Notes: generated by a model from the sequence alone, not told the origin. Positions 15,499 to 35,966 are shown, counted from the first letter of the stretch. The stretch is DNA of 64,000 nt from Nemertoderma westbladi (GCA_032718475.1 JAUCBJ010001846.1:496001-560000); one strand, 5' to 3'. Program-made: numbers and translations.

Positions 15499-15512
15499 AA
15501 GATAGGAGGGCA

Positions 15513-15766
15513 TATGAACAACAATTTAGCATATGAGCTAGCAAAACCTTTGCTAATATATTAAAGAAACAAAGGGGTTTTTGGCTTGCGCTTGTATTAA
15601 TGTAGAGACTTGCAATAAAACAGGGGAAGCCTGTGCCATTGTTAGTGGTGTTAATAATCACGAGCAAATGAAGGCGGCCAACATTGTTGCTTTTTCACAA
15701 AAAGCGCAACAGTTAGGGATTAATGTGGGGGATACGGGCCAATCAGCTTTAGATAAAATGCGTTAG
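15513..15766 (+). pseudogene. YunC-like (DUF1805) protein, frameshifted
   Basis: GGAGG RBS, then MNNNLAYELAKPLLI, a frameshift, then GFLACACINVE..AIVSGV..QLGINVGDTGQSAL. Confidence 0.65.
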
Positions 15767-15788
15767 TTGCAAGCTGTAATTCTTTAAT

Positions 15789-15807
15789 TCACCCAAGTCA
15801 CAATACC
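15789..15807 (+). promoter_or_regulatory. 19-bp motif TCACCCAAGTCACAATACC, copy 1 (putative late promoter or activator site)
   Basis: Exact match to 25780-25798. Both copies are intergenic, 23-32 bp before a start codon. Confidence 0.6.
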
Positions 15808-15830
15808 CCTAAATTGCACTATGTTCCACA

Positions 15831-16847
15831 ATGGAATCCATGGACGCAATCATTCTTGAAATTAACACCACAACTGAGGGCAATCTGCCCGAATGGATAG
15901 AGCTACTCCCATCTGATATCACAGGGCGTGATGGCAGAAGTTGGCTTGCCGATCACACACAAGTCTTAAATACTTTTAAACAAAGAAACGTTGATATCCC
16001 CATCGATATTGAGCATGCCAGTCAGCTGAAAGCCCCCAAAGGTGAAGCGGCACCTTCTGTTGGCTGGATCAAGGCGTTAAAAATTGAAAACAACGCTATT
16101 TGGGGACGAGTTGTGTGGAATGACTTGGGTAAAGAACTTGTTGCATCCAAACAATACCGATACCTAAGCCCCGCGATCACCTTTAATAAACAAACAAGAG
16201 TTGTCACAGGTATTCAAACAGTGGGCATTACCAACCAGCCCAATCTGCATTTACAAGCACTAAACAAAGAGCACAAAGAACACCAAGAAGAAAAACAACC
16301 AAATAAGGAGCCAGAAAATATGTCATTTAAAAATATTGCAGTCAGCCTAAACCTTGAGCAAGCGGCTGATGAGTCAACCATCATTCAATCCATTCAACAA
16401 CTTCAAACCAAAGACGTTGATCTGAATCAATATGTCCCAAAGGCCGATCATGAATTGGCTTTAAATAAACAAAAGGAACTCCAAGAAAAACTCAATACAA
16501 TCGAGCAAGACAAGCACAATCAAGCGGTTGAGGTAGCGATTAATCAAGCAATAACAGCGGGTAAAATCGCCCCAGCCAGCAAAGGTTTCTACGAGGATTC
16601 TTGCCAAGATGAAGAAGGTCTTAACCGATTCAAACAACACATTGAAAGCCTGCCCTCAATTAATGAAGGTGGCGCGACTGGATCACAACCTAAAGATCAA
16701 GCCCAAGCACTCAATGCTCAAGAGCAAGAAATCGCTCAAATGATGGGCGTGGATGAAACTGAGCTTCAAGCCTTTAAATCACCCAATCAATCACCCAATC
16801 AATCACCCAGCCAATCTAATAACCAAACACAAACAGGAGTAAAGTAA
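15831..16847 (+). CDS. Mu gpI-like prohead protease/scaffold
   Basis: PEWIELLP, GRDGRSW, IDIEH, APSVGWI, YRYLSP, TNQPNL. Confidence 0.92.
   Translation: MESMDAIILEINTTTEGNLPEWIELLPSDITGRDGRSWLADHTQVLNTFKQRNVDIPIDIEHASQLKAPKGEAAPSVGWIKALKIENNAIWGRVVWNDLGKELVASKQYRYLSPAITFNKQTRVVTGIQTVGITNQPNLHLQALNKEHKEHQEEKQPNKEPENMSFKNIAVSLNLEQAADESTIIQSIQQLQTKDVDLNQYVPKADHELALNKQKELQEKLNTIEQDKHNQAVEVAINQAITAGKIAPASKGFYEDSCQDEEGLNRFKQHIESLPSINEGGATGSQPKDQAQALNAQEQEIAQMMGVDETELQAFKSPNQSPNQSPSQSNNQTQTGVK
16320..16847 (+). CDS. Nested in-frame scaffolding protein (Mu gpZ equivalent)
   Basis: Internal AAGGAG (16305-16310) lies 9 nt before an in-frame ATG at 16320 (MSFKNIAVSL). Confidence 0.65.
   Translation: MSFKNIAVSLNLEQAADESTIIQSIQQLQTKDVDLNQYVPKADHELALNKQKELQEKLNTIEQDKHNQAVEVAINQAITAGKIAPASKGFYEDSCQDEEGLNRFKQHIESLPSINEGGATGSQPKDQAQALNAQEQEIAQMMGVDETELQAFKSPNQSPNQSPSQSNNQTQTGVK
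16779..16814 (+). repeat. 12-bp tandem repeat x3 (SPNQ SPNQ SPSQ) at the protease C-terminus
   Basis: tcacccaatcaa tcacccaatcaa tcacccagccaa. Confidence 0.8.
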
Positions 16848-17758
16848 TGGCCATTATTAAATCAGCAACACTGGATGCCCAACGCACCGTATTTTCAAAA
16901 ATTTACAAAGATGCCTATGAGGCCTCTCAAAAAGAATCAGACCATGAAAAAGTAGCGACCACCGTACCCTCAAGCTCAAAATCCAATACTTATGGCTGGT
17001 TAGGTGCCATGCCTTCTGTGCGTGAATGGACGGGCGATCGTGTACTTAATGACATTAAAGAACACAGCTATGCAATTACCAACAAAGACTGGGAATCAAC
17101 CATTGCAGTCGATCGAAACGATATTGAAGATGATAATTTAGGTGTTTACAAGCCACTGCTTTCATCCATGGGTCAAAGCGCTGCCACCTACGCGGATGAG
17201 TTGGTATTTGCGCTTTTAAAAAGTGGTTTTTCAACCAACTGCTTTGATGGGCAGTTTTTCTTTGATACCGACCATCCCATCTATCCCAACCATGATGGAA
17301 CAGGCACAGCGATTACCATTAGCAATATGCAAGATGGAAGTGCAACCCCTTGGTTTTTGTTAGATACCTCAAAACCTCTAAAGCCACTCATTTTTCAGCA
17401 ACGAAAAAAACCGGTGTTCACCTCAATGGATTCAACAACGGATGAATCCGTTTTTACCAATAAAACCTTTCGTTATGGGGTAGATGCCAGAAGTAATGTG
17501 GGCTTTGGTTTTTGGCAGATGGCGTTTGGCTCAAAGCTTGATTTAACACCTGCTAATTTTGACCAGGCGCGCAGTGCCATGCGATCTATCAAAGCCGATG
17601 GCGGTAAACCTTTAAACATCAAGCCCACACTTTTAGTGGTGCCACCTCAACTTGAATCAGCTGCCCTTCGCCTAATTAAAGCAGAGCGCGACACCTCAGG
17701 CGCCACTAACATTTATCAAAATAGCGTGGATGTGTTAGTGACATCTTGGTTGGCATAA
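16847..17758 (+). CDS. Mu gpT-like major capsid protein
   Basis: SNTYGWLG..P.VREW.GDR, DIEDDNLG, DGQFFFDTDHP, YGVDARSNVGFGFWQMA. Confidence 0.95.
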   Translation: MAIIKSATLDAQRTVFSKIYKDAYEASQKESDHEKVATTVPSSSKSNTYGWLGAMPSVREWTGDRVLNDIKEHSYAITNKDWESTIAVDRNDIEDDNLGVYKPLLSSMGQSAATYADELVFALLKSGFSTNCFDGQFFFDTDHPIYPNHDGTGTAITISNMQDGSATPWFLLDTSKPLKPLIFQQRKKPVFTSMDSTTDESVFTNKTFRYGVDARSNVGFGFWQMAFGSKLDLTPANFDQARSAMRSIKADGGKPLNIKPTLLVVPPQLESAALRLIKAERDTSGATNIYQNSVDVLVTSWLA

Positions 17759-17773
17759 TTTAGGAGATAAAAA

Positions 17774-18121
17774 ATGACAGAAAACGATTTACAAAAACAA
17801 TTAAAGCAACAAGATCAAGATATTAAAGCGCTTCAATCGAAGATCCACAATAAAGATCAAAAGATTGACGAACTTAAAAAGGATATAGCCGAATCTGCTG
17901 ATCAAATAGCTGATTTAAAAAAACAGATTAAAGATTTAACACCCGCACCTGTCAATCAAGATCAAATGATTGTCTGCAAAGTTAAAGCAAGATCAAAAGG
18001 CCAAATCAGACATAGGCTGGGACATGGTTTTAACAGTGAATTAAAAACGGTCAAAATCAAACAAGCCAATCTTTTAAAACTGAAAGCTGATCCAGAGCTG
18101 ATCGTTGAGGTCTTAAAATGA
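17774..18121 (+). CDS. Mu gp35/HI1506-like protein with an N-terminal coiled coil
   Basis: RHRLGHGF..LKADPELIVE, positioned directly after the capsid gene. Confidence 0.6.
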   Translation: MTENDLQKQLKQQDQDIKALQSKIHNKDQKIDELKKDIAESADQIADLKKQIKDLTPAPVNQDQMIVCKVKARSKGQIRHRLGHGFNSELKTVKIKQANLLKLKADPELIVEVLK

Positions 18122-18507
18122 CAAGCTTTGCCACACAACAAGATATAGTCAATCGATACGGCCAAGATGCTTTGCCTATTGATCAATCAGGTGCAATTGA
18201 CACCCAATCGATTGATCAGGCATTATCCGATGCATCAGATGAGATCACAGCGCTTTTAGGCAACTTAGAAGTACCCGCCAATGTGAAACAACTATGTGTG
18301 GATATTGCAATCTACAGGCTTTCAAATGATGCAGGAAGTCTTACCGAAGACAGGCGCAAACGTTACAAAGATGCGGTTGATTTTTTAAAGTATTTGGTGC
18401 CCAGCTCAAGTTCAAACAACAGCGCATCGAGCAGCTTAATTTCTGGCGAACAAATCATACATTCAAGTGCAGCTGATCGTCAATTTACGAGAGACACCTT
18501 GGTATGA
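18118..18507 (+). CDS. Mu gp36 (DUF1320) head-tail connector
   Basis: FATQQDIVNRYG..ALSDASDEI..CVDIAIYRL..RYKDAVDFL. Confidence 0.88.
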   Translation: MTSFATQQDIVNRYGQDALPIDQSGAIDTQSIDQALSDASDEITALLGNLEVPANVKQLCVDIAIYRLSNDAGSLTEDRRKRYKDAVDFLKYLVPSSSSNNSASSSLISGEQIIHSSAADRQFTRDTLV

Positions 18508-18950
18508 GTGCATTGGTTTTTGATATTTCCAAATTATTGCGGTTGAAAGAAAAAATAGCGTTTTTAGATAAAACCGATAAAAAAGCATTGCTTGAATCTG
18601 TCGGTGCTGAGGTTGAAAGCCAAACCCAACATCGCTTGGTGGATGAAAAAGCAGCACCTGACGGAACACCTTGGCCCGCTTGGAGTCAAAAGTATCAAAA
18701 AACGCGAGAGGCGCATCATAACCTTTTGCAATCAGAAGGTGATCTTGCCACAACCATTACCGCCAATCCGCCCACAAACAACTCAATTGAGATAGGCAGT
18801 CATGAGATTTATTCAAATACCCATCAATTCGGTGATGAGAAAAGAGGCATCCCTCAAAGACAGTTTCTAGGCCTAAGCCCCCAAAATATCAGCGACATTC
18901 AGGCATTGATTGAATTATTTTTGCAAAACCATTTACGTAAAATAGGATGA
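18504..18950 (+). CDS. Phage virion morphogenesis protein (Mu gpG-like)
   Basis: APDGTPW, HQFG, IPQRQFLGLS. Confidence 0.88.
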   Translation: MSALVFDISKLLRLKEKIAFLDKTDKKALLESVGAEVESQTQHRLVDEKAAPDGTPWPAWSQKYQKTREAHHNLLQSEGDLATTITANPPTNNSIEIGSHEIYSNTHQFGDEKRGIPQRQFLGLSPQNISDIQALIELFLQNHLRKIG

Positions 18951-19426
18951 GCGCTGTCACACTACAAAACGACATCACACAAGCGCTTTCTAGAACCAGT
19001 GCGGTTTATATTCAAAAATGCCCAGGGCGATTTGACCTAACCGAAGTCATGCAAAGATCTATTAAAACACCTGCTGTTTTTGTGGGCGTTTTGGCAAATG
19101 ATTCGCAAAACCATCACACAACCACCAACATGGCATGCTATGTGCTGACCTTACCAACAAGACAAGATGAATCCAACCAACAAGGCATAGCACTTGTGGA
19201 GCAAGTCCAGCATATTTTACAAAAAGACTTTACAACCAAAACGAACGCACAAAATCTGTATTCAGGCAAATTCAACAACCACAACATCGGGCTTTGGGCC
19301 ATTACCTTTGAGATTAAAGAAGCACTTATGCCCTTGGATGATGCGCAATTTAACCAACTTGATGATTTTGAACATTTCAACCACACAACCAATCAACTAG
19401 CAGGCGAGTTCAGCCTAGGAGAATAA
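18947..19426 (+). CDS. Mu gp37-like tail terminator
   Basis: PGRF..TPAVFV..NLYS..LWAITF, and position in the operon. Confidence 0.6.
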   Translation: MSAVTLQNDITQALSRTSAVYIQKCPGRFDLTEVMQRSIKTPAVFVGVLANDSQNHHTTTNMACYVLTLPTRQDESNQQGIALVEQVQHILQKDFTTKTNAQNLYSGKFNNHNIGLWAITFEIKEALMPLDDAQFNQLDDFEHFNHTTNQLAGEFSLGE

Positions 19427-19615
19427 ATGAAAGAAATTTTTGTAAGACCCAAAAAACATAAGCGTGTTTTAAAACGTAATGGTCAGATCATCCCAAAGAC
19501 AGGCACCACCATCATCGTAAACCCTTATTACAAACGGCTGCTCAATGATGGGGATTTAATTGCCTGCAAAAAACCTAAAACCACACCAACCGAACCTAAA
19601 ACAAATCAGGAGTAA
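19427..19615 (+). CDS. Mu gp38-like (DUF2635) protein
   Basis: IFVRP..G..IP..G..YYKRLLNDGDL, directly before the sheath gene. Confidence 0.8.
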   Translation: MKEIFVRPKKHKRVLKRNGQIIPKTGTTIIVNPYYKRLLNDGDLIACKKPKTTPTEPKTNQE

Positions 19616-19618
19616 TTC

Positions 19619-21070
19619 ATGAGTCAGATCACCTTCACCAACATTCCTGTTGGCATTAAAACACCAGGTGTTTTTATTGACATTAAAAATCAACAGCAGC
19701 AAACAGGGCTGCCGCACGCCGATCAAAAAATACTGATTTTAGGTCAACGACTTGAATCAGGCGAACAAGCCGCCTTATCACCTGTACGCATTACATCCCC
19801 GTCCCAAGCGATGCGTCTATTTGGCAAAGGGTCAAACATAGCGCTTATGTGTGATGTGGTGTTAAAAAATGCACCCATAGCGCATATCAGCGCATGTGCA
19901 GCTGACGATCAAGATGACTTTGACACATCCGTTCACGCCATTACATTTGATGGCCAGGCCGAAGAAGCACAAGCCATGCAAATTCAAATAGGTCATCAAA
20001 GCATTACCAAAAACATCAGCATTGGGGATAGCGCAGCTGATATTGCAGAATTTTTCAAAGAAATTGTTGATGATGCAGAGCATTTAAGTGTTGCGGCAGA
20101 AATTGAAGACGCTGTATTAACCTTGACCGCGAAAAACAAAGGTGTACTGGGCAACATCAATATTAAAATACCAGCCTTACCACAAGGCTTAACTGCAGAA
20201 ATTGAACAAACCACAGCAGGTTCAGGCACACCTGATATAACCGATATCTTAGCGGCGATAGGTGATGCGCAATATACATCTATCATCAGCCCTTATTCAG
20301 GTGATGAGAGCATAAGTGCGATTGAAGATGAACTTGCAGACAGATTTTTACCCGAACAACAAAAAACAGGCCATGTGTTTACGGCGAAATTTGGCACACA
20401 TGCAGCGCTGATCACTTATGGATCAGATAGAAACAGCCCACATTCAAGTTGCTTAGGACTTAAAGACAGTCAAACACCAGAATATATCACAGCATGCATC
20501 TTTGCAGCCGCGTGTCATCAAGCAGGAAGCATCGATCCTGCTAGACCTTTTCAAACCTTAAGCCTTCAAGGTATTACACCGCCTAGCATTGAAAACAGAT
20601 TCACACAAACCGAGCGTAATTTATTGCTTCAAAACGGCATATCAACCAGCACAACAGATAATCAAGGCATTCAAAGATTGGAGCGTGTGATCACAACCTA
20701 TCAAAGCGATGCGCAAGGCCTGTCTGATGAAAGTTATTTAGATCTCAATTCCAAATGGACCATTGATTATATTCGTTTTGCCATCAACCAGCGCATTGCC
20801 CAAACCTTTCCAAGACACAAACTGGCAAATGATGGCACAAACTTCGCGCCAGGTCAGGCCATTGCAACACCTAAAATCATCAAAGCTGAGATCATCGCTT
20901 TGCTTCGAGACCTAGAAGAACATGGACTGATTGAAGATTTAAATGGATCGGTTGAACAAATTGAGGTTATTAGAAATCGTGATGATGCCAGTCGCGTGGA
21001 TGCATCTATCCCCGTGGATCTGATCAATGGCATGCGCGTGTTGGCTGCATCACTTGAATTTAAATTATAA
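19619..21070 (+). CDS. Contractile tail sheath (Mu gpL)
   Basis: ITF..IP...TPGVF, FGKGS, DPARPFQTL, ERNLLL..GIST, FPRHKLA. Confidence 0.95.
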   Translation: MSQITFTNIPVGIKTPGVFIDIKNQQQQTGLPHADQKILILGQRLESGEQAALSPVRITSPSQAMRLFGKGSNIALMCDVVLKNAPIAHISACAADDQDDFDTSVHAITFDGQAEEAQAMQIQIGHQSITKNISIGDSAADIAEFFKEIVDDAEHLSVAAEIEDAVLTLTAKNKGVLGNINIKIPALPQGLTAEIEQTTAGSGTPDITDILAAIGDAQYTSIISPYSGDESISAIEDELADRFLPEQQKTGHVFTAKFGTHAALITYGSDRNSPHSSCLGLKDSQTPEYITACIFAAACHQAGSIDPARPFQTLSLQGITPPSIENRFTQTERNLLLQNGISTSTTDNQGIQRLERVITTYQSDAQGLSDESYLDLNSKWTIDYIRFAINQRIAQTFPRHKLANDGTNFAPGQAIATPKIIKAEIIALLRDLEEHGLIEDLNGSVEQIEVIRNRDDASRVDASIPVDLINGMRVLAASLEFKL

Positions 21071-21079
21071 GGAGAAACC

Positions 21080-21439
21080 ATGAAACTCACAGGTATTGCA
21101 CAAATTAAACTCGGTGGTGATTTAATCAGATCCCAATCAGGCGCGAAACTGATGTTTGGAAACGCTGAACGAAACACCATTGTGGGGGCTAAGGGCGCGG
21201 ATGGTTACACCGAAAAACCAACCGCACCTGGCGTTGAGTGTCAGATTAGTCACAGCTCCGATACCTCATTTAAAAACCTAAGTGAAACAACAGACATCAC
21301 CATCACCTTTGAATGCGATACAGGCACCATCTATATCTTACGTCACGGGTGGCTGGCTAATTCAATTGAGTTTAGCGCAGATGAAAACGGGGTGTTTGAT
21401 GTCACATTTAACGCCATGAGTTGCGAGGAGGTCAGATGA
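21080..21439 (+). CDS. Tail tube (Mu gpM)
   Basis: 119 aa directly after the sheath; GYTEKP, TITFECDTG. Confidence 0.88.
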   Translation: MKLTGIAQIKLGGDLIRSQSGAKLMFGNAERNTIVGAKGADGYTEKPTAPGVECQISHSSDTSFKNLSETTDITITFECDTGTIYILRHGWLANSIEFSADENGVFDVTFNAMSCEEVR

Positions 21440-21777
21440 TTTCATTTGAACTGAAAACAGGCATCAAAGAAGGTGAACAAATTCATAAAAGTTGTGTCAT
21501 CAAACAAGCAAGCGCTGGTGATATTATTGATGCATCAACATCAGCTGAAAAAATTGTTGCCACGCCAAACGGTTATCAATTGGTGGTATCCGCTGTGCTT
21601 TTGGATCTAGAGCTTTTAAGACGACAGATCGTCAAAATTGGCTCAATTGAAGGGCCTATTTCAATGAAGTTGATCCGTCTTTTAACGGGCGAGGATTTAG
21701 GTCTCATCCAAAACGAGCAAGTCAAACTGGATCAAGCGGTTATCAACCAAGCTGTGATTGAGTCTAAAAAAAAGTGA
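21436..21777 (+). CDS. Tail assembly chaperone (gp41-like)
   Basis: GAGGAGG RBS; AGDIIDA..AEK, LRRQIVKIG.IEGP; lies between the tube and tape-measure genes. Confidence 0.82.
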   Translation: MISFELKTGIKEGEQIHKSCVIKQASAGDIIDASTSAEKIVATPNGYQLVVSAVLLDLELLRRQIVKIGSIEGPISMKLIRLLTGEDLGLIQNEQVKLDQAVINQAVIESKKK

Positions 21778-21929
21778 TTGAGGCCAGATGCCGTGATATT
21801 ACCCAATCAATCGCATCACTTGGTCAAATTCTTCATTTTTCAAAAGCAGATTATCTGAAAATGAATGAGCTTGAAATCTGTCAATTAATCGTTCAAATAA
21901 ATAAGCAAAATGACCGAGCTCGTCGCTAA
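21766..21929 (+). other. Programmed -1 frameshift site (A AAA AAG) and chaperone extension frame
   Basis: AAAAAAAAG directly precedes TGA. The -1 frame is open for 51 codons (IASLGQILHFSKADYLKMNELEI) to TAA 21927-21929, overlapping the TMP start. Confidence 0.8.
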
Positions 21930-23769
21930 AATTACCTTGGGCTTAAATGATAAGTTAAGCCGAGGCGTTCAACGTACGGGCCGACAAATTGGTCAGTTCT
22001 CCAAGCGCTCGAGACAACAGTTAAAACGCCTGCAATCAGGGTTTGGTACTCTGGGCAGAGGCGTTGATAAACTAGCGAATCGTTACAGTGCGATTATCTC
22101 AACGGCAGCTTTGGGGGTTGCTGTGAAAAAGGTGGGTGATTTGGATGCCAGATTGGAGCGCATGGGAACGCAAGCTGGGCGTTCGACACAGGATATGCAA
22201 CAGCTCAAAGATGAGATTTTCAGCATCGCCAATCAACAAGAAATACGCACCGATCCAACAGGTATGCTCGATGCTATTGACTCAATTGTTGAAAAAACAG
22301 GCAACCTTGATTTTGCCAAAGAGAATTTAAGAAACATTGGCCTTGTCATGCAGGCCACAGGCGCACAAGGTAAAGATGTGGGGGAGATGCTGGCTGAGTT
22401 TGAGAAACTAGGCATTAAAGGAACTGATGGTGTGATGCAAGCCATTGCCATTTTAAATGAGCAAGGCAAGATGGGTGCATTTACCCTTCAAGAGCTTGCA
22501 AAATTAGGCCCTAGAGTGATCAATGCCTATGCGCCGATGGCATCGAGTATTGGTCCTCAAATGCTCAAAGAGATGGGTGCAGTGCTGCAGGTCATTCGAA
22601 TGGCAACAGGTTCATCGGAACAGGCAGCCACTTCATTTGAAGCGATGATGGGATCTTTATCTGATGTGACAAAAATCAAAAAACTGCAAAAAATTGGCGT
22701 ACAGGTGTTTGATCCCAAACTACTTGAAGAAGGTCAGAAAAAACTGCGCCCAATCAATGAATTATTTACTGATATCATCAAGCAATCTAAAGGAGACATC
22801 ACGGTTTTAGGCTCTATATTTGGAATACAAGATCAAAGAGCTTTAAATAAACTGCTTGAAGAATATGGCAGAACTAAAGGTTTTAAATCCCTTGAAAAAT
22901 TCATGGATGTACAAGGTAATGCCGCTCAAGTGTTAAAAGATTCTGCCCGAAATGCTAAAACCTTCAATGCTGCCATGCAATCACTCACCAATACCTTAAA
23001 TAGTCTGGCCAATGAGACTTTATCTAACCCAATTCAGTCATTAGCCGATGCCATCAATGACATTGACCCAGAGCGACTCAAAACCATTATAGAGCGCTTG
23101 GGTAAAATTGGCTTGGCCATCGGGGGCATTATTGCTGCCCGTGCAGTATTTCGAATGGGTGGTGGCATGTTCAAAGGACTAGGTGCAGGCAGTGCAAAAT
23201 TAGGGGGACCCAGTGCGATGAATGCACTCGCTGCTCCTGGGGTATCCATGGCACGACCCATGTATGTGTATGTGGTGAATCAGTCAGGCGATGGGTTTGT
23301 GGGCGGTGGCTCAGGGCCAGGTAAAGGCAAGCCTAAAATTGGTGGACCAAAGCAATCAAGATGGAGGCAACTAGGCGGTAAAGCACTCAAAGGCACTCCT
23401 TTGTTAGGACTTGGTTTAGCTGCAATGGAGGGTTACAACGTCATCACATCTAATACTCCTACGCAAGAAAAAATACATGCAGGCGGTGAGTTGGCAGGTG
23501 GTGGATTAGGTGCTTGGGGTGGTGCAGTTTTGGGTGCATCAATTGGTTCAGCGGTGCCCGTGATTGGAACAGCCATCGGTGGCGCATTGGGTGGGCTACT
23601 TGGCTATTTTGGTGGATCACATCTTGGTGGAGAGGCAGCTGATTGGATCACCGCCGCTGACAAAATATCAGACGCAGCAGATAAAATGGACAAAGCCGCC
23701 GATAAAGAAAAAACCATCAAAATAACCGATCAAAAAGGGCGTAAACTTAACACAGGGTCCATCCAATGA
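21910..23769 (+). CDS. Tail tape measure protein
   Basis: 619 aa, Ala/Gly-rich and helical; QGKMGAFTL..LA..GPR, EQAATSFE, Gly-rich C-terminus. Confidence 0.9.
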   Translation: MTELVAKITLGLNDKLSRGVQRTGRQIGQFSKRSRQQLKRLQSGFGTLGRGVDKLANRYSAIISTAALGVAVKKVGDLDARLERMGTQAGRSTQDMQQLKDEIFSIANQQEIRTDPTGMLDAIDSIVEKTGNLDFAKENLRNIGLVMQATGAQGKDVGEMLAEFEKLGIKGTDGVMQAIAILNEQGKMGAFTLQELAKLGPRVINAYAPMASSIGPQMLKEMGAVLQVIRMATGSSEQAATSFEAMMGSLSDVTKIKKLQKIGVQVFDPKLLEEGQKKLRPINELFTDIIKQSKGDITVLGSIFGIQDQRALNKLLEEYGRTKGFKSLEKFMDVQGNAAQVLKDSARNAKTFNAAMQSLTNTLNSLANETLSNPIQSLADAINDIDPERLKTIIERLGKIGLAIGGIIAARAVFRMGGGMFKGLGAGSAKLGGPSAMNALAAPGVSMARPMYVYVVNQSGDGFVGGGSGPGKGKPKIGGPKQSRWRQLGGKALKGTPLLGLGLAAMEGYNVITSNTPTQEKIHAGGELAGGGLGAWGGAVLGASIGSAVPVIGTAIGGALGGLLGYFGGSHLGGEAADWITAADKISDAADKMDKAADKEKTIKITDQKGRKLNTGSIQ

Positions 23770-24812
23770 GCTGGCATGATCAACTCATCCCCGCCAAAAT
23801 TGGCAACATTGATTTTTTGATCAAATCGCATGATGCACAATTTGGCAGACGCACTCAAACCCACAGCTTTCCTAATCAAGATCAAAGCTATACCCAAGAT
23901 TTAGGCAAAAGCCCAAGACAGCTCAATATTCAAGGCTATTTGTTGGGTGATGCTTATGCAATCAATCGAGACGCATTAATTGCGCTATCTGAGGCCGAAT
24001 CAAATGTCACCCTTCACCACCCCTACCTAGGCGTGATGCAAGTGGTTTTAAAATCATTAAAACTTAAAGAACAAACCGATCAAGGCCGCATTGCACAGAT
24101 TACATTAAGCCTTTGTGAGCAAGGTGATACACCTTTACTCAAAACCTCTATCAATTCCCAAAAACAACTTACCGATCAAGTTGTCATCACGCAAGCATCC
24201 AGCAGATCGGTATTTGAAGCAAGCTTTATCAACACACCATCCAATTTAATTAGATCGCATACACAAAGTCTTGCCGATCAACTGTCAGAGGATTTGGGGG
24301 TGGCGATTGACATTAGAAGCAATCTATACGATCAAATTGAATCGGGTTTGAAAGCTGTCAATAACCCCATATCCTTTTTTGGTTGGGGTGATGTTTTTCA
24401 GACCATTGAGATTTTAAGTACACCGCGCAAAATTCAAGCGCAAAACCAACAAAACCTCATTCAATCCGTGCAAACGGCAGCGGTGATTGAAGCTGTGCAA
24501 AATACCATTACACAAGATAAAAAAACAGATCAAACCATTCATACAATCCAAACCAAACTAACCGAACTGTCAAACCTTTCAACCGACCATCACCACACCC
24601 TCACACTTAATAAACTACAAGTACTTTTAAGCCAAAGCCAATTTAATCAAACCAGCAATCTTTTAGCACTTGAAGTTGCAACACAAACACCTGCATTAGT
24701 TTTGGCTTATCGTTTTTTAAATGATGCCAACCAAGACCAAAACCTAACCCAAAACCAACCCTTTTCCCACCCGCTTTTAATGGCTAAAAAAGTTAAATAT
24801 CATGTCAGTTGA
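23766..24812 (+). CDS. Mu gpN-like DNA circularisation protein
   Basis: MSWHDQL..A, GRR...H.FP..D, DLG, LHHPYLG. Confidence 0.88.
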   Translation: MSWHDQLIPAKIGNIDFLIKSHDAQFGRRTQTHSFPNQDQSYTQDLGKSPRQLNIQGYLLGDAYAINRDALIALSEAESNVTLHHPYLGVMQVVLKSLKLKEQTDQGRIAQITLSLCEQGDTPLLKTSINSQKQLTDQVVITQASSRSVFEASFINTPSNLIRSHTQSLADQLSEDLGVAIDIRSNLYDQIESGLKAVNNPISFFGWGDVFQTIEILSTPRKIQAQNQQNLIQSVQTAAVIEAVQNTITQDKKTDQTIHTIQTKLTELSNLSTDHHHTLTLNKLQVLLSQSQFNQTSNLLALEVATQTPALVLAYRFLNDANQDQNLTQNQPFSHPLLMAKKVKYHVS

Positions 24813-25773
24813 GCTGCATATCGAAGGGCTGATATTAAGTGGCTGGACGCATGTAAGCATTAGCCGCTTAACAAATGATTTGGCGGGTGAATTTGAATTA
24901 GGGCTGACCAATAAAACCTTAAATCAACTACCTGTTAAAGTTGCTCAAAAATGCTTGATCAAATATAAAAACCAAACACTTTTAACAGGCTATATTGATG
25001 TCTTTAATTGTAACTACAGCGCTGATGAACAACAAGTAAGCGTATCAGGTCGTGATGTGACCTCTGTTTTAGTTGATTCATCGATTGAATCTGTAGGTTT
25101 TTCCCAACAAACCGCACCTCAAATTATCACACAACTCATCAATCCATTTGGCATTGCTTTAATTGATCAAAGCAGCGTGAAATTTGAGCCCATTGAAAAC
25201 TTTCAAACCAACCCTGGCGATCTTTTAATTGATGCGATCAAACGCTTGGTTAAATCAAACAATATTAGCCTTTCAACCGATGGCTTGGGCAATCTTATTT
25301 TAAATAGCGACAAACCAGAACCCACAAACGCCACTCTTGAAACAGGTCGCAATATTTTAAGCGCTGAGGCAAGCTTTGACATCACCGATCAATTTTCAGA
25401 CATTACAGTACTTGGTCAAGCACAATCTGATGACTTTTTTCCTGCCCAAAATGCACAAAGCGCGAAGCATCAAATTAAAGAACCGAATGTGCCATTTTAT
25501 AAACCATTGGTGCTGATTGCCGATGACAATGCCACCCAAAGCAACACGCAAACACGTGCAGAATTTGAAATAAAAAACAGACGCAAGAATGCCACACAAA
25601 TTAATTACACTGTGTGTGGTTGGGAATCATCAGAAGGAAAAGTTTGGAAGCCAGGGCAAGCGGTGTATGTGAAAGATTCTATACTAAACATCAATTTAAA
25701 CATGCAAGTGAATCAAGTGAAGCTAGTGCTTGATGAGGGTGGGCAAAAGGCACAGATTGTTTGCGCAAAATAG
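24802..25773 (+). CDS. Baseplate hub (Mu gpP/gp44)
   Basis: SGWT.V.I.R, GYID, SGRD.T..LVDSS, G.NIL, FS.ITV.GQ, W.PG. Confidence 0.9.
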   Translation: MSVELHIEGLILSGWTHVSISRLTNDLAGEFELGLTNKTLNQLPVKVAQKCLIKYKNQTLLTGYIDVFNCNYSADEQQVSVSGRDVTSVLVDSSIESVGFSQQTAPQIITQLINPFGIALIDQSSVKFEPIENFQTNPGDLLIDAIKRLVKSNNISLSTDGLGNLILNSDKPEPTNATLETGRNILSAEASFDITDQFSDITVLGQAQSDDFFPAQNAQSAKHQIKEPNVPFYKPLVLIADDNATQSNTQTRAEFEIKNRRKNATQINYTVCGWESSEGKVWKPGQAVYVKDSILNINLNMQVNQVKLVLDEGGQKAQIVCAK

Positions 25774-25779
25774 ACTGAA

Positions 25780-25798
25780 TCACCCAAGTCACAATACC
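25780..25798 (+). promoter_or_regulatory. 19-bp motif, copy 2, upstream of the spike gene
   Basis: Identical to 15789-15807. Confidence 0.6.
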
Positions 25799-25829
25799 TA
25801 AAACCGCTCAACTTTTAGATCATAAAAGC

Positions 25830-26321
25830 ATGAGCAATCCTATCAAAAATTTAATCACCCGCTGTCTTGCCAAAATTGTGAAAGACAGCAAAGGCATCCA
25901 GCGCATGCAAGTCACAGGCTTTAGTGATGAGGTGATTGATAACGTGCAGCGTATTCAAAACTATGGTGTAACCTCACATCCTAAACAAGGTGCAGAAGCT
26001 ATTTGCATATCTCGAGGTGGTGCGCGATCAGATACCATTTGTATTGCGTGCGATGATTCTCGTTTTCGTATTCAAAATTTAGAAGAAGGTGAAGTCTGCT
26101 TATACACAGACGAAGGCGACACCATCCATTTTAAACGCGGCCAATTAATTGAAATCACCGCTCAAACAAAACTTAAAATCACCTCACCGCAAGTTGAAAT
26201 TGAAGGTGATCTAAAAGTTTCAGGCAACATTGAATCGGAAAATGATATTAAGGCAGGCTCAATTAGTCTGAAAGATCACATTCATCAAACACCACAAGGT
26301 TTCACCCAAAGACCGCAATGA
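25830..26321 (+). CDS. Baseplate spike (Mu gp45)
   Basis: QNYGVTSHP..GAE, GG.RS, GEVCLY; C-terminal ISLKDHIH metal-binding motif. Confidence 0.92.
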   Translation: MSNPIKNLITRCLAKIVKDSKGIQRMQVTGFSDEVIDNVQRIQNYGVTSHPKQGAEAICISRGGARSDTICIACDDSRFRIQNLEEGEVCLYTDEGDTIHFKRGQLIEITAQTKLKITSPQVEIEGDLKVSGNIESENDIKAGSISLKDHIHQTPQGFTQRPQ

Positions 26322-26731
26322 TGGATATCAAATCACAATTTCACCCCCTTAATCAATCCATTGACTATTCACTTGGTGTTTTGGGTTTAACACAAGATGA
26401 TGGACTAGAAAGCAAAATAATTATCTCGCTTTTTACAGACAAACGAGTGAGCCAAAAAGAAGTTGAGTTGGGCGAAGATGTGCGCGGGTTTTGGGGCAAT
26501 ACTTTTACAGGTAAAAATATAGGCTCAAAACTTTGGCTACTTAAACGATCAACCATCAACCAAACCACCCTTAATCTTGCACGACAATACACACTAGATG
26601 CACTTGGTTGGTTAATTAAAGAAAAGATTGCTCAATCAATTGACGTCACATCCACCGCTATTTCTGGCCATATTTTAGGGCTTATAGTAATCGTTGATCA
26701 AAGTACTTTTAGCTATTACGTTGACTTATGA
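26318..26731 (+). CDS. Mu gp46-like baseplate protein
   Basis: IISLFTDKR, RGFWG, IGSKLWLLKR, ALGWL. Confidence 0.92.
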   Translation: MMDIKSQFHPLNQSIDYSLGVLGLTQDDGLESKIIISLFTDKRVSQKEVELGEDVRGFWGNTFTGKNIGSKLWLLKRSTINQTTLNLARQYTLDALGWLIKEKIAQSIDVTSTAISGHILGLIVIVDQSTFSYYVDL

Positions 26732-27792
26732 CCGCCTTTACCCGCCCATCTGTCAAAGATTTAATCACCCGCAATATTGCTGAAATTAGTGCGCGATTGC
26801 CTGATGCGGATGCAAGCACCCCACAAAGCAACCTTAATGTATTATCCCATGTGCTTGCAGGTGGATTTCATGGGCTGTATGGCGCACTAGATGTTTTGGC
26901 CAAAAACGTAATGTTAGATACCTGTAATGAGGCCTACGTCCTTCGATTTTCCAACTTTTATGGCGTTGAAAGATTAAGGGCTCGCAAATCACAAGGACAG
27001 GCGACATTTACAGGCAATGAAGGTGCCTTAATTCTTGCGGGAACACAAATTAAAGCAGGTGAGCTTATCTTTCAAACCACGCAAGATGCTGTCATTCAAA
27101 GCGCAGGCAACGTAACCGTAATGATTGAGTCGGTTGCGTCAGGTCAATCTCAAAATATTGCGTCCACCACCATGCAGCTGGTTAACCCCATCACCTCAAT
27201 TAACGCAGAAGTTATCACCACACAAACCGAAGGTGGTGTGAACATTGAATCGATTGAAGCACTGCGCGCTAGAGTTCTGCTGCAACTTCAAACCCCGCCT
27301 AGGGGCGGCACACCATCTGATTATATCTTTTGGGCGAAATCAGCTAATCCAGCAGTAACCCGTGTGTGGGTGTATCCAAATGAGTTGGCTTTAGGCACGG
27401 TCACGCTTCGCATCGTCACAGATCATGCAGATTCTTTAATTGCTGATCAAATTTTACTGGATGAAGTCAAAGACTATATTGAACAAAAACGCCCTGTTGG
27501 CTCTGCTGAATTATTTGTGACCACACCAAGCTTGCGCCTTTGTGATTTTGAAATTGAACTCAAAGTGGCTGATACCCAAGCCATTCGAGAAGAGATCACA
27601 CAAAACTTATCTGATCTTTTAAGCCTTAGCCAAGCGCCAGGGGCAACGGTGCTTTACAACGATATCATCCAAACCATCTCATCAAGCGAAGGTGAGGTTA
27701 ACCACACCCTTCATCAGCCAACAGCCGACATTACCACACAGACAGGAGAACTACCTGTATTGGGTGAAATTATTTGGAGAACATCATCATGA
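26728..27792 (+). CDS. Baseplate J / Mu gp47 wedge protein
   Basis: FTRPS, GG...ES.EALRAR, PPRGG..DY..WA, VTRVWV.P. Confidence 0.92.
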   Translation: MTAFTRPSVKDLITRNIAEISARLPDADASTPQSNLNVLSHVLAGGFHGLYGALDVLAKNVMLDTCNEAYVLRFSNFYGVERLRARKSQGQATFTGNEGALILAGTQIKAGELIFQTTQDAVIQSAGNVTVMIESVASGQSQNIASTTMQLVNPITSINAEVITTQTEGGVNIESIEALRARVLLQLQTPPRGGTPSDYIFWAKSANPAVTRVWVYPNELALGTVTLRIVTDHADSLIADQILLDEVKDYIEQKRPVGSAELFVTTPSLRLCDFEIELKVADTQAIREEITQNLSDLLSLSQAPGATVLYNDIIQTISSSEGEVNHTLHQPTADITTQTGELPVLGEIIWRTSS

Positions 27793-28316
27793 GATTAAGC
27801 CATGAAAAATACACACAAGCATTGACTCAACTATTACCACAAGGCGATGCCTGGAAAGGCGAAACTTTGCACCAACTTATCAAAGCCTGGGCCGCCGAGT
27901 TTAAACGCTTTGATGCGCGAATGAATGATTTATTAGATGAATCAGACCCTAGAAATGCAAATGAACTACTGCCTGATTATGAGCGCATGCTTAATCTACC
28001 TGGTCCTTGTGTAGCTTCTTTAAGCCCAACGCAACAAGCCCGTGTGAGGTCTGTGATCAACATTTTAAAAAGAAAAGCGCCCATCACACAAAACGATTTA
28101 ATGGATGTTGCACAAAGCTTAGGCATCACAATAATCATTGATGATATAAGGCCTGCTTATTTTGGCCAGGCAAGATTTGGCATCACGCCTATTTATAATC
28201 AAATGGCCAGATGGTTTTTGATGATTAAGTCAAACGATGATATACGCATTTTAAAATGCATGTTATCTGATCTTGTTTTAGCTGATAGACAAGTTGTATT
28301 TTCGGAGGTAGCCTAA
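27789..28316 (+). CDS. Mu gp48 / YmfQ-like baseplate protein
   Basis: LLPQGDAW, E.DPR...ELLPDYER.L.LP; ATGA overlap with gp47. Confidence 0.9.
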   Translation: MRLSHEKYTQALTQLLPQGDAWKGETLHQLIKAWAAEFKRFDARMNDLLDESDPRNANELLPDYERMLNLPGPCVASLSPTQQARVRSVINILKRKAPITQNDLMDVAQSLGITIIIDDIRPAYFGQARFGITPIYNQMARWFLMIKSNDDIRILKCMLSDLVLADRQVVFSEVA

Positions 28317-29032
28317 TGGATTACCCCAGATCACAAGCACAAGCGCTACATCTTAATGCTGACAATCAATTTACCGATGGGGATATTCAGGCAGGTGTAC
28401 CTGCCAGTATTATTCCATCAATTTGGGCCAATGCATTAACTGATGAGATGCTGGAGGTCATCAGACAAGCAGGCTTTACACCTAATGAACAAAACAGCAA
28501 CCAGCTTTATCAATCAATCAGACTGATTGCACCACCTCCCGTGGGCGTTATTTTTCCATACGCATCAAATAATATGCCAGATGGCTATATTGAATGTAGC
28601 GGCGCCACCATCAGCCGAGAAACCTACCAAGACCTATTTAATGTCATTGGCACAACCTATGGCCAAGGCGATGGTTCAACCACCTTTAACTTACCCAACT
28701 TTACCAATGGCAATATTCCCATATCAACAGGCACAACCTCATCAGGTCAAACTTTAAACCTAGGCGATCAAACAGAAGGTGAGCTTCCCAACGTATCTGA
28801 TTCAACCCATCAATTTACCACACGCTCCACCTATAGCGATTCATCAGGTGCTTTAAGAACATCCGTGCAAAGCCGCGTCAACATCACATCCCCCATCTCT
28901 AACGGCTCAGGCAGCTACTCTAAACTTTCTGTTAATTTGCGAAATGCAAACACAATTTATGGCGGTCAAGATGGCAGTGCATCTGCTGTGTTGCCAAAAG
29001 GTATTGCTTGTAAATGGATCATTAAATACTAA
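28316..29032 (+). CDS. Short tail fibre protein with a collar domain
   Basis: MDYP..FTDGD...PAS..W.N.LTDE; collar motif PDGYIECSG..ISRETY.DLF.VIGT.YG.GDGSTTFNLP. Confidence 0.88.
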   Translation: MDYPRSQAQALHLNADNQFTDGDIQAGVPASIIPSIWANALTDEMLEVIRQAGFTPNEQNSNQLYQSIRLIAPPPVGVIFPYASNNMPDGYIECSGATISRETYQDLFNVIGTTYGQGDGSTTFNLPNFTNGNIPISTGTTSSGQTLNLGDQTEGELPNVSDSTHQFTTRSTYSDSSGALRTSVQSRVNITSPISNGSGSYSKLSVNLRNANTIYGGQDGSASAVLPKGIACKWIIKY

Positions 29033-29037
29033 AAATT

Positions 29038-29679
29038 ATGCAAATACTGACGTATCAAGAAATTCATAACCAAAAAATCATCACAGGTTTACAGCCTGCA
29101 CCGATCGACCCTTTGGAATCTGAAAAACAAGATGAAGATGTTTACTTGGTTCCTGCCAACTCAATGCTTACAACCATCGAGCACCTTCCAGAAACCCAAA
29201 ACAACCAAGTGTTAATTATTACAGGTAACAACATACCTGCAAGCATCGATAATATTCAAATAATAACCAGTCAAATGGGTCAAAACTACTGGACGGTGGA
29301 AAACAACCAATACATCCAAAAAACCATCCAAACCTTAGACGAACAAATCCCACAAGATGCACTCATACAACCCCCCACAGAACAACAACAATTAGCACTT
29401 TTGCCAATTGAAGCACAATACGAAATCTTAAAAGACAAACTAATTGATGCCCTTAATATTTGGCAATTCAACATCGTCAAATCCTATGACTACCGCAGCA
29501 TCACACAAGCCGTACTAGATGATGAAGCACCAGCCTTTAAAGCGTGGGATACTGCCTGCCTTGAAAAAGCACGCGAGCTAAAAGCAAAAGTTGCAGCAGG
29601 CGAACTGTCGGTTGAAATACTAACCCCAGAATACTTCATTGCACAAATGCCAAATTTGGAGGACTACCTAAATGAATAA
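29038..29679 (+). CDS. Probable tail fibre assembly/chaperone protein
   Basis: DPLES...VYLVPANS, follows the fibre gene. Its C-terminus is shared with 35086-35565. Confidence 0.6.
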   Translation: MQILTYQEIHNQKIITGLQPAPIDPLESEKQDEDVYLVPANSMLTTIEHLPETQNNQVLIITGNNIPASIDNIQIITSQMGQNYWTVENNQYIQKTIQTLDEQIPQDALIQPPTEQQQLALLPIEAQYEILKDKLIDALNIWQFNIVKSYDYRSITQAVLDDEAPAFKAWDTACLEKARELKAKVAAGELSVEILTPEYFIAQMPNLEDYLNE

Positions 29680-30019
29680 CCTTAAAACACTCATTGATGC
29701 CAACCATCACAACACCAATATCATTAACATCCCAGAACATGTTGTCACGGGCATACTGCCAGAAAACACCAACACCCAAATTGCAGTACCCACAGGTGCA
29801 AGAGTCGTTGTGTTTGGTGTAAGCGGTGAGTTTTGGTTAAGTGTAGACGCGCGAGAAGCAGCCATTCCAAACAACACAACGCCTGAAAACGGCCATTGTG
29901 TTTATTTGCCAAATGCCCGCATGCTTGATGATAGACACTTAAGTACTGACAATCAAACCAAGTATTTAAACATCATCGCACCCAGTGATACCTCATATTC
30001 AATTGCTTTTTACAAATAA
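29672..30019 (+). CDS. Hypothetical phage protein (beta-rich)
   Basis: GGAGG RBS, coupled to the upstream gene, 115 aa. Confidence 0.6.
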   Translation: MNNLKTLIDANHHNTNIINIPEHVVTGILPENTNTQIAVPTGARVVVFGVSGEFWLSVDAREAAIPNNTTPENGHCVYLPNARMLDDRHLSTDNQTKYLNIIAPSDTSYSIAFYK

Positions 30020-30077: not shown

Positions 30078-30305
30078 ATGAACTTTAAATCTAGACAACA
30101 ACGCCGATTTTATGAGCGACGCGCCAAAAAACAAGGGTTAACGGTTGCAGAATATATGAAGGCAGAAGCCGCCAAACCAGCAATAATACATGCAAATAAA
30201 GTGCGTGGTTGTCCCACACAATATAGAACACCACATTTAGGTTGTGAAGGCGCTATGGCTTTGATGGTGTGCCTAGCCCAACGCAAACAAAGCGGGCCAT
30301 CATGA
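30078..30305 (+). CDS. Hypothetical small basic protein
   Basis: MNFKSRQQRRFYERRAKK; ATGA overlap with the next gene. Confidence 0.45.
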   Translation: MNFKSRQQRRFYERRAKKQGLTVAEYMKAEAAKPAIIHANKVRGCPTQYRTPHLGCEGAMALMVCLAQRKQSGPS

Positions 30306-32421: not shown

Positions 32422-32457
32422 TAACATACCTTAAGTGGTTAAGGGAGTAGCTAAAAA

Positions 32458-32540
32458 TTGCAACAGTGTTGCACTCAGTGCAACTTATGATTCATGCATT
32501 TATCATGCGGCTAGGTGTTAATTTATCATGCGTGCGTACA
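32458..32540. repeat. Transposable-phage-type right terminus, copy 1
   Basis: 83 bp ending in CGTACA. Two ATTTATCATGCG boxes (32498, 32521). About 83% identical to 37846-37928. Confidence 0.8.
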
Positions 32541-32825
32541 GTGGATCCCAAAGAGGCTGATACAGGGGAAGATATACGTGGGTTTTGGGGCAATACCTTT
32601 ACAGGTGAGAATATCGACTCTAAATTATGGCTGCTTAAACGCTCAAAACTGACCCAAACCACCCTCAACCTTGCACGCTAGTACGTCCTAGACTCCCTTA
32701 ATTGGTTGATTAAAAATCACCTGATCCAGTCCATTGATGTCACCGCCACGGCCATCGCAGGTCATATCTTAGGCCTTATCATCTGTGTTGATCAAAATAC
32801 TTTTAGCTTTGAGGTGCGTTTATGA
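32541..32825 (+). pseudogene. 5'-truncated gp46 paralogue with a nonsense codon
   Basis: Begins mid-gene (VDPKEADTGEDIRGFWGNTFTG). TAG at 32679-32681 where copy 1 has CAA. Confidence 0.88.
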
Positions 32826-33883: not shown

Positions 33884-34404
33884 GATTAACCTAAGATGAT
33901 TACACCCAAGCACTTTTACAGCTTTTACCCCAAGGTGCTGCCTGGCAAGGGGAGACCTTACAAAAACTCATTGATGCTTGGTCGGCAGAGTTTGAACGTT
34001 TTGATGCGCGCATGAATGATTTACTAGATGAAGCCAATCCAAGGAATGCTAATGAACTATTAAGCGATTATGAGCGCATGCTGGGTTTGCCTAATCCCTG
34101 CATGGCTGCACTTTTGCTTTCCAAAGAAGATCGAGTTGGAGCTGTGGTGGCTTTACTTCAAAGAACAGCACCCATCACTCAAGCTGATCTTGTGCGTCTG
34201 GCTTCAGACTTAGGTATTCAAATCACCATCAAAGACATTAATCCCGCCTACTTTGGACAGGCTCGCTTTGGTGTCACACGTTTGTACAACAAACTCGTGC
34301 GTTGGTTTTTATTCATTGAATCTGATCAAGATTTAAGCCTGCTTAAATGCTTGTTTTCAAATTTAATTTTAGCTGGAAAAACAGCCATCTTTAGGAGAGT
34401 GTAA
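33880..34404 (+). pseudogene. gp48 paralogue with TAA at codon 5
   Basis: ATG AGA TTA ACC TAA, then in-frame DDYTQALLQLLPQGAAWQGE. Confidence 0.85.
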
Positions 34405-35942: not shown

Positions 35943-35966
35943 GCAGTTTAACAACAGGAGACCTTC

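Follow-up and report, generated by a model that had tools for sequence, protein, structure and literature searches.

The window, by which we mean the whole 64-kb stretch of DNA analysed, carries on its plus strand at 15831-30019 twenty consecutive open ORFs of Mu type, which run from the head protease and scaffold to the tail fibre without a single stop or frameshift (Table 1). The original prediction of about 20 unbroken structural genes over 14 kb is thus confirmed. A profile scan with Pfam and PHROGs, covering the 35 ORFs of 13602-38757, named 17 of the 20, the gp37-type protein and the tape measure being recognised by PHROGs alone. Thirteen of 39 Mu proteins matched the window, all inside 15894-34655, in a search of limited sensitivity that missed gp36, gp37, gp38 and the tape measure, all of which the profile searches found. 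The Mu-type head genes (I, T, gp36) and the contractile tail genes lie in Mu order, the contractile tail and baseplate set is complete, as an R-type tailocin requires, and the virion proteins are derived from Caudoviricetes by Pfam/PHROGs and PDB. As far as the window goes, a head and a contractile tail are present without replication genes, as in a PBSX-like particle.

Table 1. Features of the operon and its surroundings, in window coordinates
Feature	Coordinates	Strand	Basis
Leftover 3' end, likely nrdA (ribonucleotide reductase alpha), C-x-x-C-K-L-stop	15757..15779	+	motif
18-bp motif copy 1, predicted late-promoter activator site, Mu PI-like position	15790..15807	+	exact repeat
Head protease I with in-frame scaffold start (Met164 at 16320)	15831..16847	+	PF10123, phrog_328
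Major capsid protein T	16847..17758	+	PF10124; PDB 8rkc, 9jod
Small protein, Mu gp35 position	17774..18121	+	unknown-function PHROGs only; assigned by position
Head-tail adaptor gp36	18118..18507	+	PF07030
gpG-type tail completion protein, after gp36 as in KS10	18504..18950	+	PF05069
gp37-type tail terminator	18947..19426	+	phrog_490
gp38 / DUF2635	19427..19615	+	PF10948 (below cut-off); phrog_208
Contractile tail sheath	19619..21070	+	phrog_165, E 8e-151
Tail tube	21080..21439	+	PF10618
Tail chaperone gp41, stop at 21777	21436..21929	+	PF23746
Tape measure, 619 aa (Mu 690 aa)	21910..23769	+	phrog_973
Tube initiator gp43, 348 aa (relatives 435-495)	23766..24812	+	PF07157
Baseplate hub gp44	24802..25773	+	Pfam GpP domains
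18-bp motif copy 2, 5' of spike gene	25781..25798	+	exact repeat of 15790..15807
Spike gp45, H-x-H near C-terminus	25830..26321	+	PF06890; PDB 9ki1
Baseplate wedge gp46, gp47, gp48	26318..28316	+	PF07409, PF04865, PF10076
Short tail fibre with collar domain	28316..29032	+	PF07484, phrog_1858; phage fibres PDB 8kec, 9cuy
Likely fibre assembly chaperone	29038..29679	+	Atlas look-alikes are phage proteins; no Pfam/PHROGs match
115-aa protein	29672..30019	+	weak phrog_32570, E 0.0017
Broken large LamG-domain gene (frameshift, then TAA at 31603)	30248..32421	+	frames; X1 contig matches without difference
88-bp repeat copy 1	32453..32540		82% to 37841-37928
Second, decaying tail-tip cassette: gp46, gp47, gp48, fibre, chaperone	32540..35565	+	Pfam/PHROGs
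3-TM holin, out of frame at G8 run 35888-35895	35562..35970	+	PF11351, phrog_3427; break unconfirmed in X1 tables
DUF1353 protein, open	35967..36341	+	PF07087
Protein fragment, residues 41-344; two relatives of 663 and 677 aa	36345..37261	+	comparison with relatives
88-bp repeat copy 2, right end of reversed-skew block	37841..37928		repeat search; base skew

Alignment with relatives showed that the protease keeps its DIEH and YLSP motifs (His/Ser), and an AAGGAG ribosome site lies 5' of the scaffold start. The adaptor gp36 has retained its C-terminal arm and has lost the G-K-x-S-L-G stretch of its relatives; in Mu this arm binds the portal, as stated in PMC11915804. The same paper gives Mu gp37 as the tail terminator, and the 'portal' label of phrog_490 was rejected because RefSeq puts it on Mu gp37 (159 aa) as well. 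The gp41 gene has an A-run slippery site and an open -1 frame reaching the tape measure, from which we infer that the site may be used for frameshifting. In an alignment, the C-terminus of gp44 is 6-10 residues short of the shortest relatives. The capsid protein has 62% identity to the best of the 120 relatives listed and sits on a long branch (0.53 changes per column) with no close phage relative in a tree of 51 rows made by a quick method; this tree left it unplaced and gives no support to descent from loci of KS10 layout. For the ORF at 29038-29679 the nearest named Atlas cluster is Caudo_TAP_N (0.88, on 26% of members), which is a lead only, and the ORF at 29672-30019, likewise unmatched in the profile scan apart from the weak phrog_32570, has no relative at E 0.001.

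Mu (NC_000929.1) shares with the operon the order I/Z, T, 35-48 and fibre, the sheath being 36% identical to Mu gpL over its full length and the capsid 46%. Activator-type sites precede the head and baseplate genes of Mu (PI and PP, as far as described in PMC2582627), and they are likewise predicted here, but here the second site is before gp45 and not gp44, gpG has moved behind gp36, and there is a single short fibre. A gpG-type gene is downstream of T in 29 of the 78 loci that possess one. By its published description, the Burkholderia transposable myophage KS10 is similar: its terminase, portal and MuF lie outside a unit that comprises a protease with embedded scaffold, a capsid with a MuG homologue behind it, a FluMu41-type chaperone and some 14 kb of genes for a contractile tail (PMC2628397). 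KS10, however, is complete and forms plaques, and Mor immediately precedes its unit; in our case the end of a host-type gene takes that place, and the window does not contain the other arm.

The 18-bp motif is exact before the protease and before the spike, and two matches were found in none of 100 shuffles. A search of IMG/VR with 16 of the 18 bases gave 14 matches, about chance level and none near Mu-like genes. Scans for sigma-70 promoters and terminators gave shuffle level, and Rfam found nothing in 9000-42000.

Portal, terminase, gpF, MuA/B, repressor and Mor/C were absent from the 64-kb window (15.8 kb upstream and 34 kb downstream), in agreement with what had been claimed for the surroundings of the operon. 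The 26 of 39 Mu proteins without a match in the window include c, A, B, Mor, C, lys, terS, terL, portal, gpF, gin and mom. Likewise, the 7,282 ORFs of 160 Mu-like loci matched the window only in 15879-34625, and four portals, four gpF and two terL proteins gave a best E of 0.58 against it. There is thus no single element of about 37 kb linking A/B, repressor, Mor/C, terminase, portal and gpF, and the operon, unlike a PBSX-like block, has no internal terminase and portal. No endolysin or activator was recognised in the 64-kb window; the holin is present but out of frame.

Extracellular contractile injection systems of the Afp, PVC and MAC type have no capsid, and their AAA+ ATPase and effector genes are linked. 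Here a capsid is present, no ATPase or effector family was recognised among the 35 ORFs of 13602-38757, of which two small ones have no assignment, and the fibre is of the phage collar type. For the injection device that had been suggested earlier, nothing points to eukaryotic targets.

Decay is seen on both sides of the operon. The yheO-like gene has an in-frame TAG at 15154-15156 and the yunC-like gene a frameshift near its start. In the second cassette, which has 72-74% DNA identity to the first, gp46 is clipped and has a stop, gp47 is open, gp48 has a TAA at codon 5 and the fibre chaperone is frameshifted; a response regulator gene is frameshifted as well. The breaks first described for the flanking genes, the LamG gene and most of the second cassette are confirmed, but a break in the histidine kinase was not demonstrable. 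Short-read contigs of the sequencing run X1 agree with the window over 25193-32830 (no difference) and over 6001-15797 (one difference, no gaps), which means that the breaks there did not arise in assembly; the pieces compared did not include the holin break. Atlas gave no usable match for 31606-32418, and P0241 had none in viral contigs. The 14,022 bp of the operon hold no lesion as against six in the adjoining 6,838 bp of phage-derived DNA; with borders chosen after inspection of the data, the chance of all lesions falling outside the operon is 0.0012, or 0.011 when only tracts unique to the window copy are used. The base skew of the window copy is reversed (-0.30 versus +0.13 in host plus-strand genes), and GC at four-fold sites is 0.43 in the operon, the host range being 0.42-0.49.

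The 23-bp stub at the left junction overlaps the final 10 bases of the yunC-like gene, and its C-x-x-C-K-L-stop has a single occurrence on either strand of the window, with 0.025 expected per strand. The pattern E-C-x-S-C-K-[LI]-stop gave 15 matches in IMG/VR; a scan of 12 of them identified 11 as NrdA (about six distinct sequences), and the remaining three had open frames of 4-14 codons. The exact back-translated E-C-V-S-C-K-L-stop gave none there. A second copy of the operon in X1 extends upstream in the nrdA frame, open and acidic over the 30 letters shown, and the nrdA call is based on these letters of one loose end and the 23 window bases. None of 51 phage loci has nrdA upstream of the protease. 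The original prediction had the operon start at a promoter motif after a host-type gene. The motif does lie 23 bp after the yunC stop, but the DNA in between is probably the nrdA 3' end, whose stop is 10 bp from the motif, and not a yunC spacer. It is likely from these sequences that the older locus of the operon is behind nrdA and not at ispH, which the original prediction gave as its locus. An assembly chimera at the junction was rejected: an X1 short-read contig from the host genes to 15797 carries the join, although it overlaps the shared sequence by 30 letters only, so that the join is in the graph but barely bridged. No tRNA lies at the element ends; the two tRNAs of the window are at 45981 and 53251.

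The second copy in X1 is mosaic and has the same left start as the window copy. Both sit behind the 3' end of the likely nrdA, of which the window keeps only the stub; motif copy 1 has no listed difference between them, and neither visible copy has packaging genes upstream. Their depths of about 31 and 34 sum to 65, a total that hardly allows for a third copy preceded by a portal, and in none of the loose ends inspected, six of nine, does an X1 contig connect the protease gene with gpF or portal. From the listed differences (40 of 316 and 40 of 568 rows), the protease has a dS of 0.38, a dN of 0.03 and a ratio of 0.08 over 123 codons, with 15 of 16 differences in one tract silent versus 22% expected, and gp44 has a dN/dS of 0.15 over 49 codons. 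Neither ratio of this comparison, which had been proposed at the outset, is near 1. In the diverged tracts dS is 0.3-0.8, and X1 has identical and diverged tracts side by side. At the gp44 end the second copy has 815 other letters, and it regains likeness exactly at 25780, beside motif copy 2. The sample holds at least four related versions: the first cassette, the second cassette, the 30-40x copy and a 4.9x homologue of gp43-gp44; more distant capsid homologues and extra holin/DUF1353 copies are also found in X1.

In this one sample the operon is likely, judged from its sequence, to have been kept by selection. The arguments are the lesion contrast, the silent-biased divergence, the second, diverged copy that begins at the same point, and the details that have been preserved, namely the protease motifs, scaffold start, gp36 arm and chaperone frameshift site. 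To this extent the earlier reading of selection stands, injection device apart; the break at the promoter site is less surprising than it then seemed, since in KS10-type phages the operon is separate from terminase, portal and gpF (PMC2628397). The silent divergence may, however, predate domestication or reflect tracts from live phages, since at least four related versions coexist. It is possible, if doubtful, that the operon is half of a recently disabled KS10-type prophage, of a family still active in the lineage, whose other arm was lost and whose remainder was duplicated and has not yet decayed. The several versions with their adjacent identical and diverged tracts would fit this, as would the KS10 layout, in which protease, capsid, MuG and tail lie about 11 kb from terminase-portal-MuF (same source), and the four of 51 relatives whose protease is not preceded by a packaging gene, three of these having portal and gpF elsewhere in the record. 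The reversed skew fits recent arrival here, and so less time for decay, and early decay may be seen in the short gp44, a gp43 about 90-150 aa shorter than relatives, the lost gp36 stretch and the out-of-frame holin. Against it, contiguous phage-derived DNA has at least six lesions and the operon none; the two visible copies have the junction with the host gene in common, although their diverged tracts, under purifying selection, are a dS of 0.3-0.8 apart; and the motif follows the nrdA-like stop after only 10 bp.

We tentatively prefer, at a little under an even chance, that the operon encodes a domesticated, head-bearing contractile particle similar to PBSX or a gene transfer agent (GTA), made from the late operon of a Mu/KS10-type transposable phage that became split from control, replication and packaging. 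This is favoured by the long capsid branch without a close phage relative, by a four-fold GC inside the host range, by the same nrdA-like end behind which both copies lie, and by the 18-bp motif, whose two occurrences are identical and one of which stands where the likeness of the diverged copy returns. The ancestral prophage would have split at the natural boundary 5' of the protease gene, and the operon would have settled 10 bp behind the likely nrdA stop. A short stretch common to both places may then have let a copy with 23 bp of nrdA move to the yunC-like gene's end, after which the two copies would have diverged and later exchanged tracts. A Mor/C-like activator encoded elsewhere would bind both 18-bp sites; protease, scaffold and capsid would form proheads, while the tail, roughly as long as that of Mu, would be built from sheath, tube, tape measure and baseplate. 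The heads would be filled by portal and terminase from another locus, probably with host DNA since no Mu ends or transposase are linked, and the particle would act on related bacteria as PBSX or a GTA does. The fuller version, a DNA-carrying particle whose operon was fixed behind nrdA and duplicated, with concerted evolution, exchangeable tips and packaging and activator genes elsewhere under the same 18-bp site, is more speculative and, though possible, doubtful.

That the head genes persist merely because they lie between promoter and tail genes of a nascent Mu-derived R-type tailocin is unlikely. The tail and baseplate set is complete, spare tip cassettes could vary targets, and Mu-like tails have been co-opted in Pseudomonas syringae, whose R-type syringacin has, like the operon, a Mu-like contractile tail without replication genes (PMC4542187). 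As had been remarked, however, the syringacin has lost all head genes, whereas here protease, scaffold, capsid and adaptor are intact. Tail genes need not suffer from a stop in a head gene, yet the protease is under strong purifying selection, and its motifs, the scaffold start and the portal-binding arm, needless for a tailocin, are kept. Least probable of all is a helper-dependent module, in which a complete related phage or prophage would give activator, portal and terminase and the copies would add heads and alternative tail tips. The gp43-gp44 and capsid homologues and extra holin/DUF1353 copies of X1 could belong to such a helper, but no contig among the six of nine loose ends inspected links protease to gpF or portal, and there is no apparent reason for selection to keep a non-replicating copy for the sake of a helper.

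The host bacterium is likely a symbiont of an animal. A search of GTDB (15 of 64 parts) for IspH relatives kept 80 of 570 loci, with 50-58% identity and none close; the closest ThrRS relative found had at most 58%, and none of ten window proteins had an exact match in the protein collection. If the domestication reading holds, the operon would add one more independent domestication, that of a Mu-derived head with contractile tail which selection maintains away from the packaging genes; KS10-type phages, already holding the operon as a separate unit, offer a simple path to it. We found no description of such a Mu-like head-bearing particle in the literature searched, which covered few subscription papers. 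In a host-restricted bacterium the particle could move DNA between cells or kill competitors, and as a GTA with a contractile tail it would give an otherwise gene-losing genome a route for recombination. The tail of RcGTA is non-contractile. Those of BaGTA and BhGTA are too, and for none of the three is a Mu derivation described in the available text of PMC9662315. By analogy, PBSX of Bacillus subtilis and Bp15.1PLP are the closest functional precedent: they are chromosomal phage-derived particles with head and contractile tail, as the one here would be, and PBSX packs random host DNA and kills relatives (PMC8347963). The PBSX-like region, however, is not Mu-derived and contains, within a single block, a terminase, a portal and regulators of its own (Table 1 of that paper). 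Among the published domesticated particles covered by these sources, either the head was dropped (R tailocins) or head and packaging motor were kept together (PBSX), and the GTAs described are non-contractile. In RcGTA, BaGTA and BhGTA a phage-derived structural cluster is fixed among host genes, with genomes often spread over several loci, and the GTAs share the 3-TM holin family PF11351 with the holin linked to the operon (PMC9662315).

The original prediction of an unbroken structural run held: 20 plus-strand ORFs follow one another with zero breaks. They stand in Mu order, the head and neck genes (protease/scaffold, capsid, gp35-position protein, gp36, gpG-type, gp37-type and gp38) being followed by those of the tail (sheath, tube, gp41, tape measure, gp43 to gp48 and fibre) and then by a probable fibre chaperone and an unassigned gene. 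The absence of packaging, replication and control genes was confirmed by three query sets. Neither 39 Mu proteins nor 7,282 ORFs of 160 Mu-like loci detected packaging, replication, control or endolysin genes in the window, ten portal, gpF and terminase queries detected no packaging genes there, and the window contains no activator gene. The operon does not qualify as a functional Mu prophage, an R tailocin or PBSX proper. We tentatively favor a domesticated head-bearing particle to which portal, terminase and activator would be supplied in trans, and which may act like PBSX (PMC8347963) or a GTA (PMC9662315). A helper-dependent module seems to us quite improbable. R-syringacin is without head genes (PMC4542187), whereas this operon has protease/scaffold and capsid, and we regard a nascent tailocin as unlikely. 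An injection device acting on animal cells found no support, the fibre being of the phage collar type and no effector families being recognized. No description of a Mu-derived head and contractile tail apart from packaging genes was found in the literature searched, including passages of PMC8987985.

Several functional details are retained. The protease has its DIEH and YLSP motifs, and in-frame Met164 of its gene is preceded by a ribosome-binding site, like the Mu scaffold. Still present in gp36 is the C-terminal arm that binds the clip of the portal in Mu (PMC11915804), and gp41 ends in an A-run at which the -1 frame is open. An 18-bp motif is exactly repeated before the protease and spike genes, and two matches were obtained in 0 of 100 shuffles; since protein C acts on Mu late promoters through a 16-bp site (PMC2582627), this motif is a putative activator site. 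Counting against full retention, gp44 is 6-10 residues short at its end, gp43 is shorter than in relatives, gp36 has lost its G-K-x-S-L-G stretch, and the holin gene is frameshifted.

The operon is present in two versions among the contigs of X1, one public sequencing run that contains the window DNA and may come from its source sample; in some tracts the two copies are nearly the same, in the others they share about 80%. Depth in X1, which is not copy number, is about 31 in the host DNA on the left, reaches 65-68 at 15768, splits into 25 + 40 over 17557-20459 and 17 + 30 from 25193, and is 43 and 33 at the right-hand flanks. Upstream of 15757 the second copy differs in sequence. The pattern C-x-x-C-K-[LI]-stop occurs once in the window, both strands counted (0.025 expected per strand), and 0 times in 6.7 Mb of other loci, and in the second copy the same frame continues, open and acidic, through the 30 upstream letters listed. 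When E-C-x-S-C-K-[LI]-stop was sought in IMG/VR, 11 of 15 matches (about 6 distinct sequences) ended ribonucleotide reductase alpha subunits. We infer from sequence that an older operon position was 10 bp behind this gene, nrdA, and that 23 bp of it came with the window copy, where they overlap the yunC-like gene in its final 10 bases. The four-fold GC skew of the operon on the plus strand is -0.30 (negative in 19/20 genes) and resembles that of minus-strand host genes (-0.35) rather than plus-strand ones (+0.13). This fits an operon that has moved, the alternative being a bias intrinsic to the phage. The copies may lie in one genome or in two co-occurring bacteria; a second, diverged prmC-prfA stretch in X1 at 38x is compatible with the latter.

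Preservation by selection, as originally suggested, agrees with dN far below dS between the copies, based on the differences listed (40 of 316 in one comparison and 40 of 568 in another). For the protease (15873-16241, 123 codons) dS was 0.38 and dN 0.03, and for gp44 (49 codons, the preceding gapped stretch left out) 0.79 and 0.12; no stop codons arose from the differences in these stretches. Between the operon's own tail-tip genes and the decaying second cassette, the ratios were 0.13 for gp47, 0.18 for gp48 and 0.20 for the fibre N-terminus, with dS near saturation. With borders chosen post hoc, the operon has 0 lesions in 14,022 bp, whereas the phage-derived genes next to it have 6 in 6,838 bp (chance 0.0012); with yheO and yunC included, the count outside is 8 in 8,003 bp (0.0003), and the test on tracts unique to the window copy gave 0.011. 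If both copies derive from the nrdA-linked one, selection would postdate the split from the packaging genes; if the diverged tracts came from live phages, it would not be after the split. A recent remnant from an active phage family is an alternative we rate as somewhat less likely than the domesticated particle. The evidence for selection is real but rests on a single sample.

The window's housekeeping genes (his genes, ispH, prfA, thrS, pheST and others) are bacterial and intact. ThrRS has its closest match at 58% identity (best 120 of 7,998 scored), and IspH identities were 50-58% across the 80 loci kept. Since these genes are without a close relative, the host appears to be a long-branch organism; it is probably gammaproteobacterial and likely a symbiont. 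The operon's neighbors, said to be pseudogenes, were indeed broken, except that breakage of the histidine kinase could not be demonstrated.

Coordinates of features in the window
Position	Feature	Observation
9400-10045	IS1595-family transposase	broken; between hisB and N-acetylglutaminylglutamine amidotransferase-like gene
15759-15779	end of frame	translates C-V-S-C-K-L-stop
15790-15807; 25781-25798	18-bp motif	exact; before protease gene and before spike gene
15831-30019	operon	
16770-16816	three 12-bp tandem units	scaffold C-terminus ~20 residues longer than relatives'
25754-25780	gp44 to second motif	815 other letters in second copy, space for one gene absent from window copy
32453-32540; 37841-37928	88-bp direct repeats, 82%	internal palindrome; bracket second tail-tip, holin, DUF1353 cassette; further version in X1 at 37x
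36345-37261	gene fragment	full-length protein about 670 aa
37434-37733	likely small high-copy repeat/IS remnant	matched by X1 contig at ~250x with several loose ends
41621-42177	prmC-prfA	second, diverged stretch in X1, ~38x; local duplication or co-occurring relative
53260-57800; 59600-62170	low-coding	5'-clipped glycosyltransferase, HTH fragment; more gene decay

Known phage layouts make a packaging-free operon less surprising. Of the 160 Mu-like loci, 51 distinct ones extend 5 kb or more upstream from the protease; the portal lies in that stretch in 47 and is absent there in 4, of which three have portal and gpF at another place in their record and the fourth is a 38% fragment. The contractile transposable phage KS10 also has its protease operon split from portal/gpF and resembles the window operon in this and in gpG position (PMC2628397); the KS10-type split falls at a natural boundary, and therefore a single break gives this operon. 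The capsid tree showed no tie between the window capsid and the four loci without upstream portal. In three uncultured Mu-like phages (L083, L084 and L134) the protease-capsid-tail operon is separate from portal and gpF, the two being in opposite orientation in L083 and L084. Among the matches listed, the viral relative with the most similar capsid (L081, 60%) has portal and gpF separated by a diversity-generating retroelement (Avd, reverse transcriptase), at 2667-6580 of that locus.
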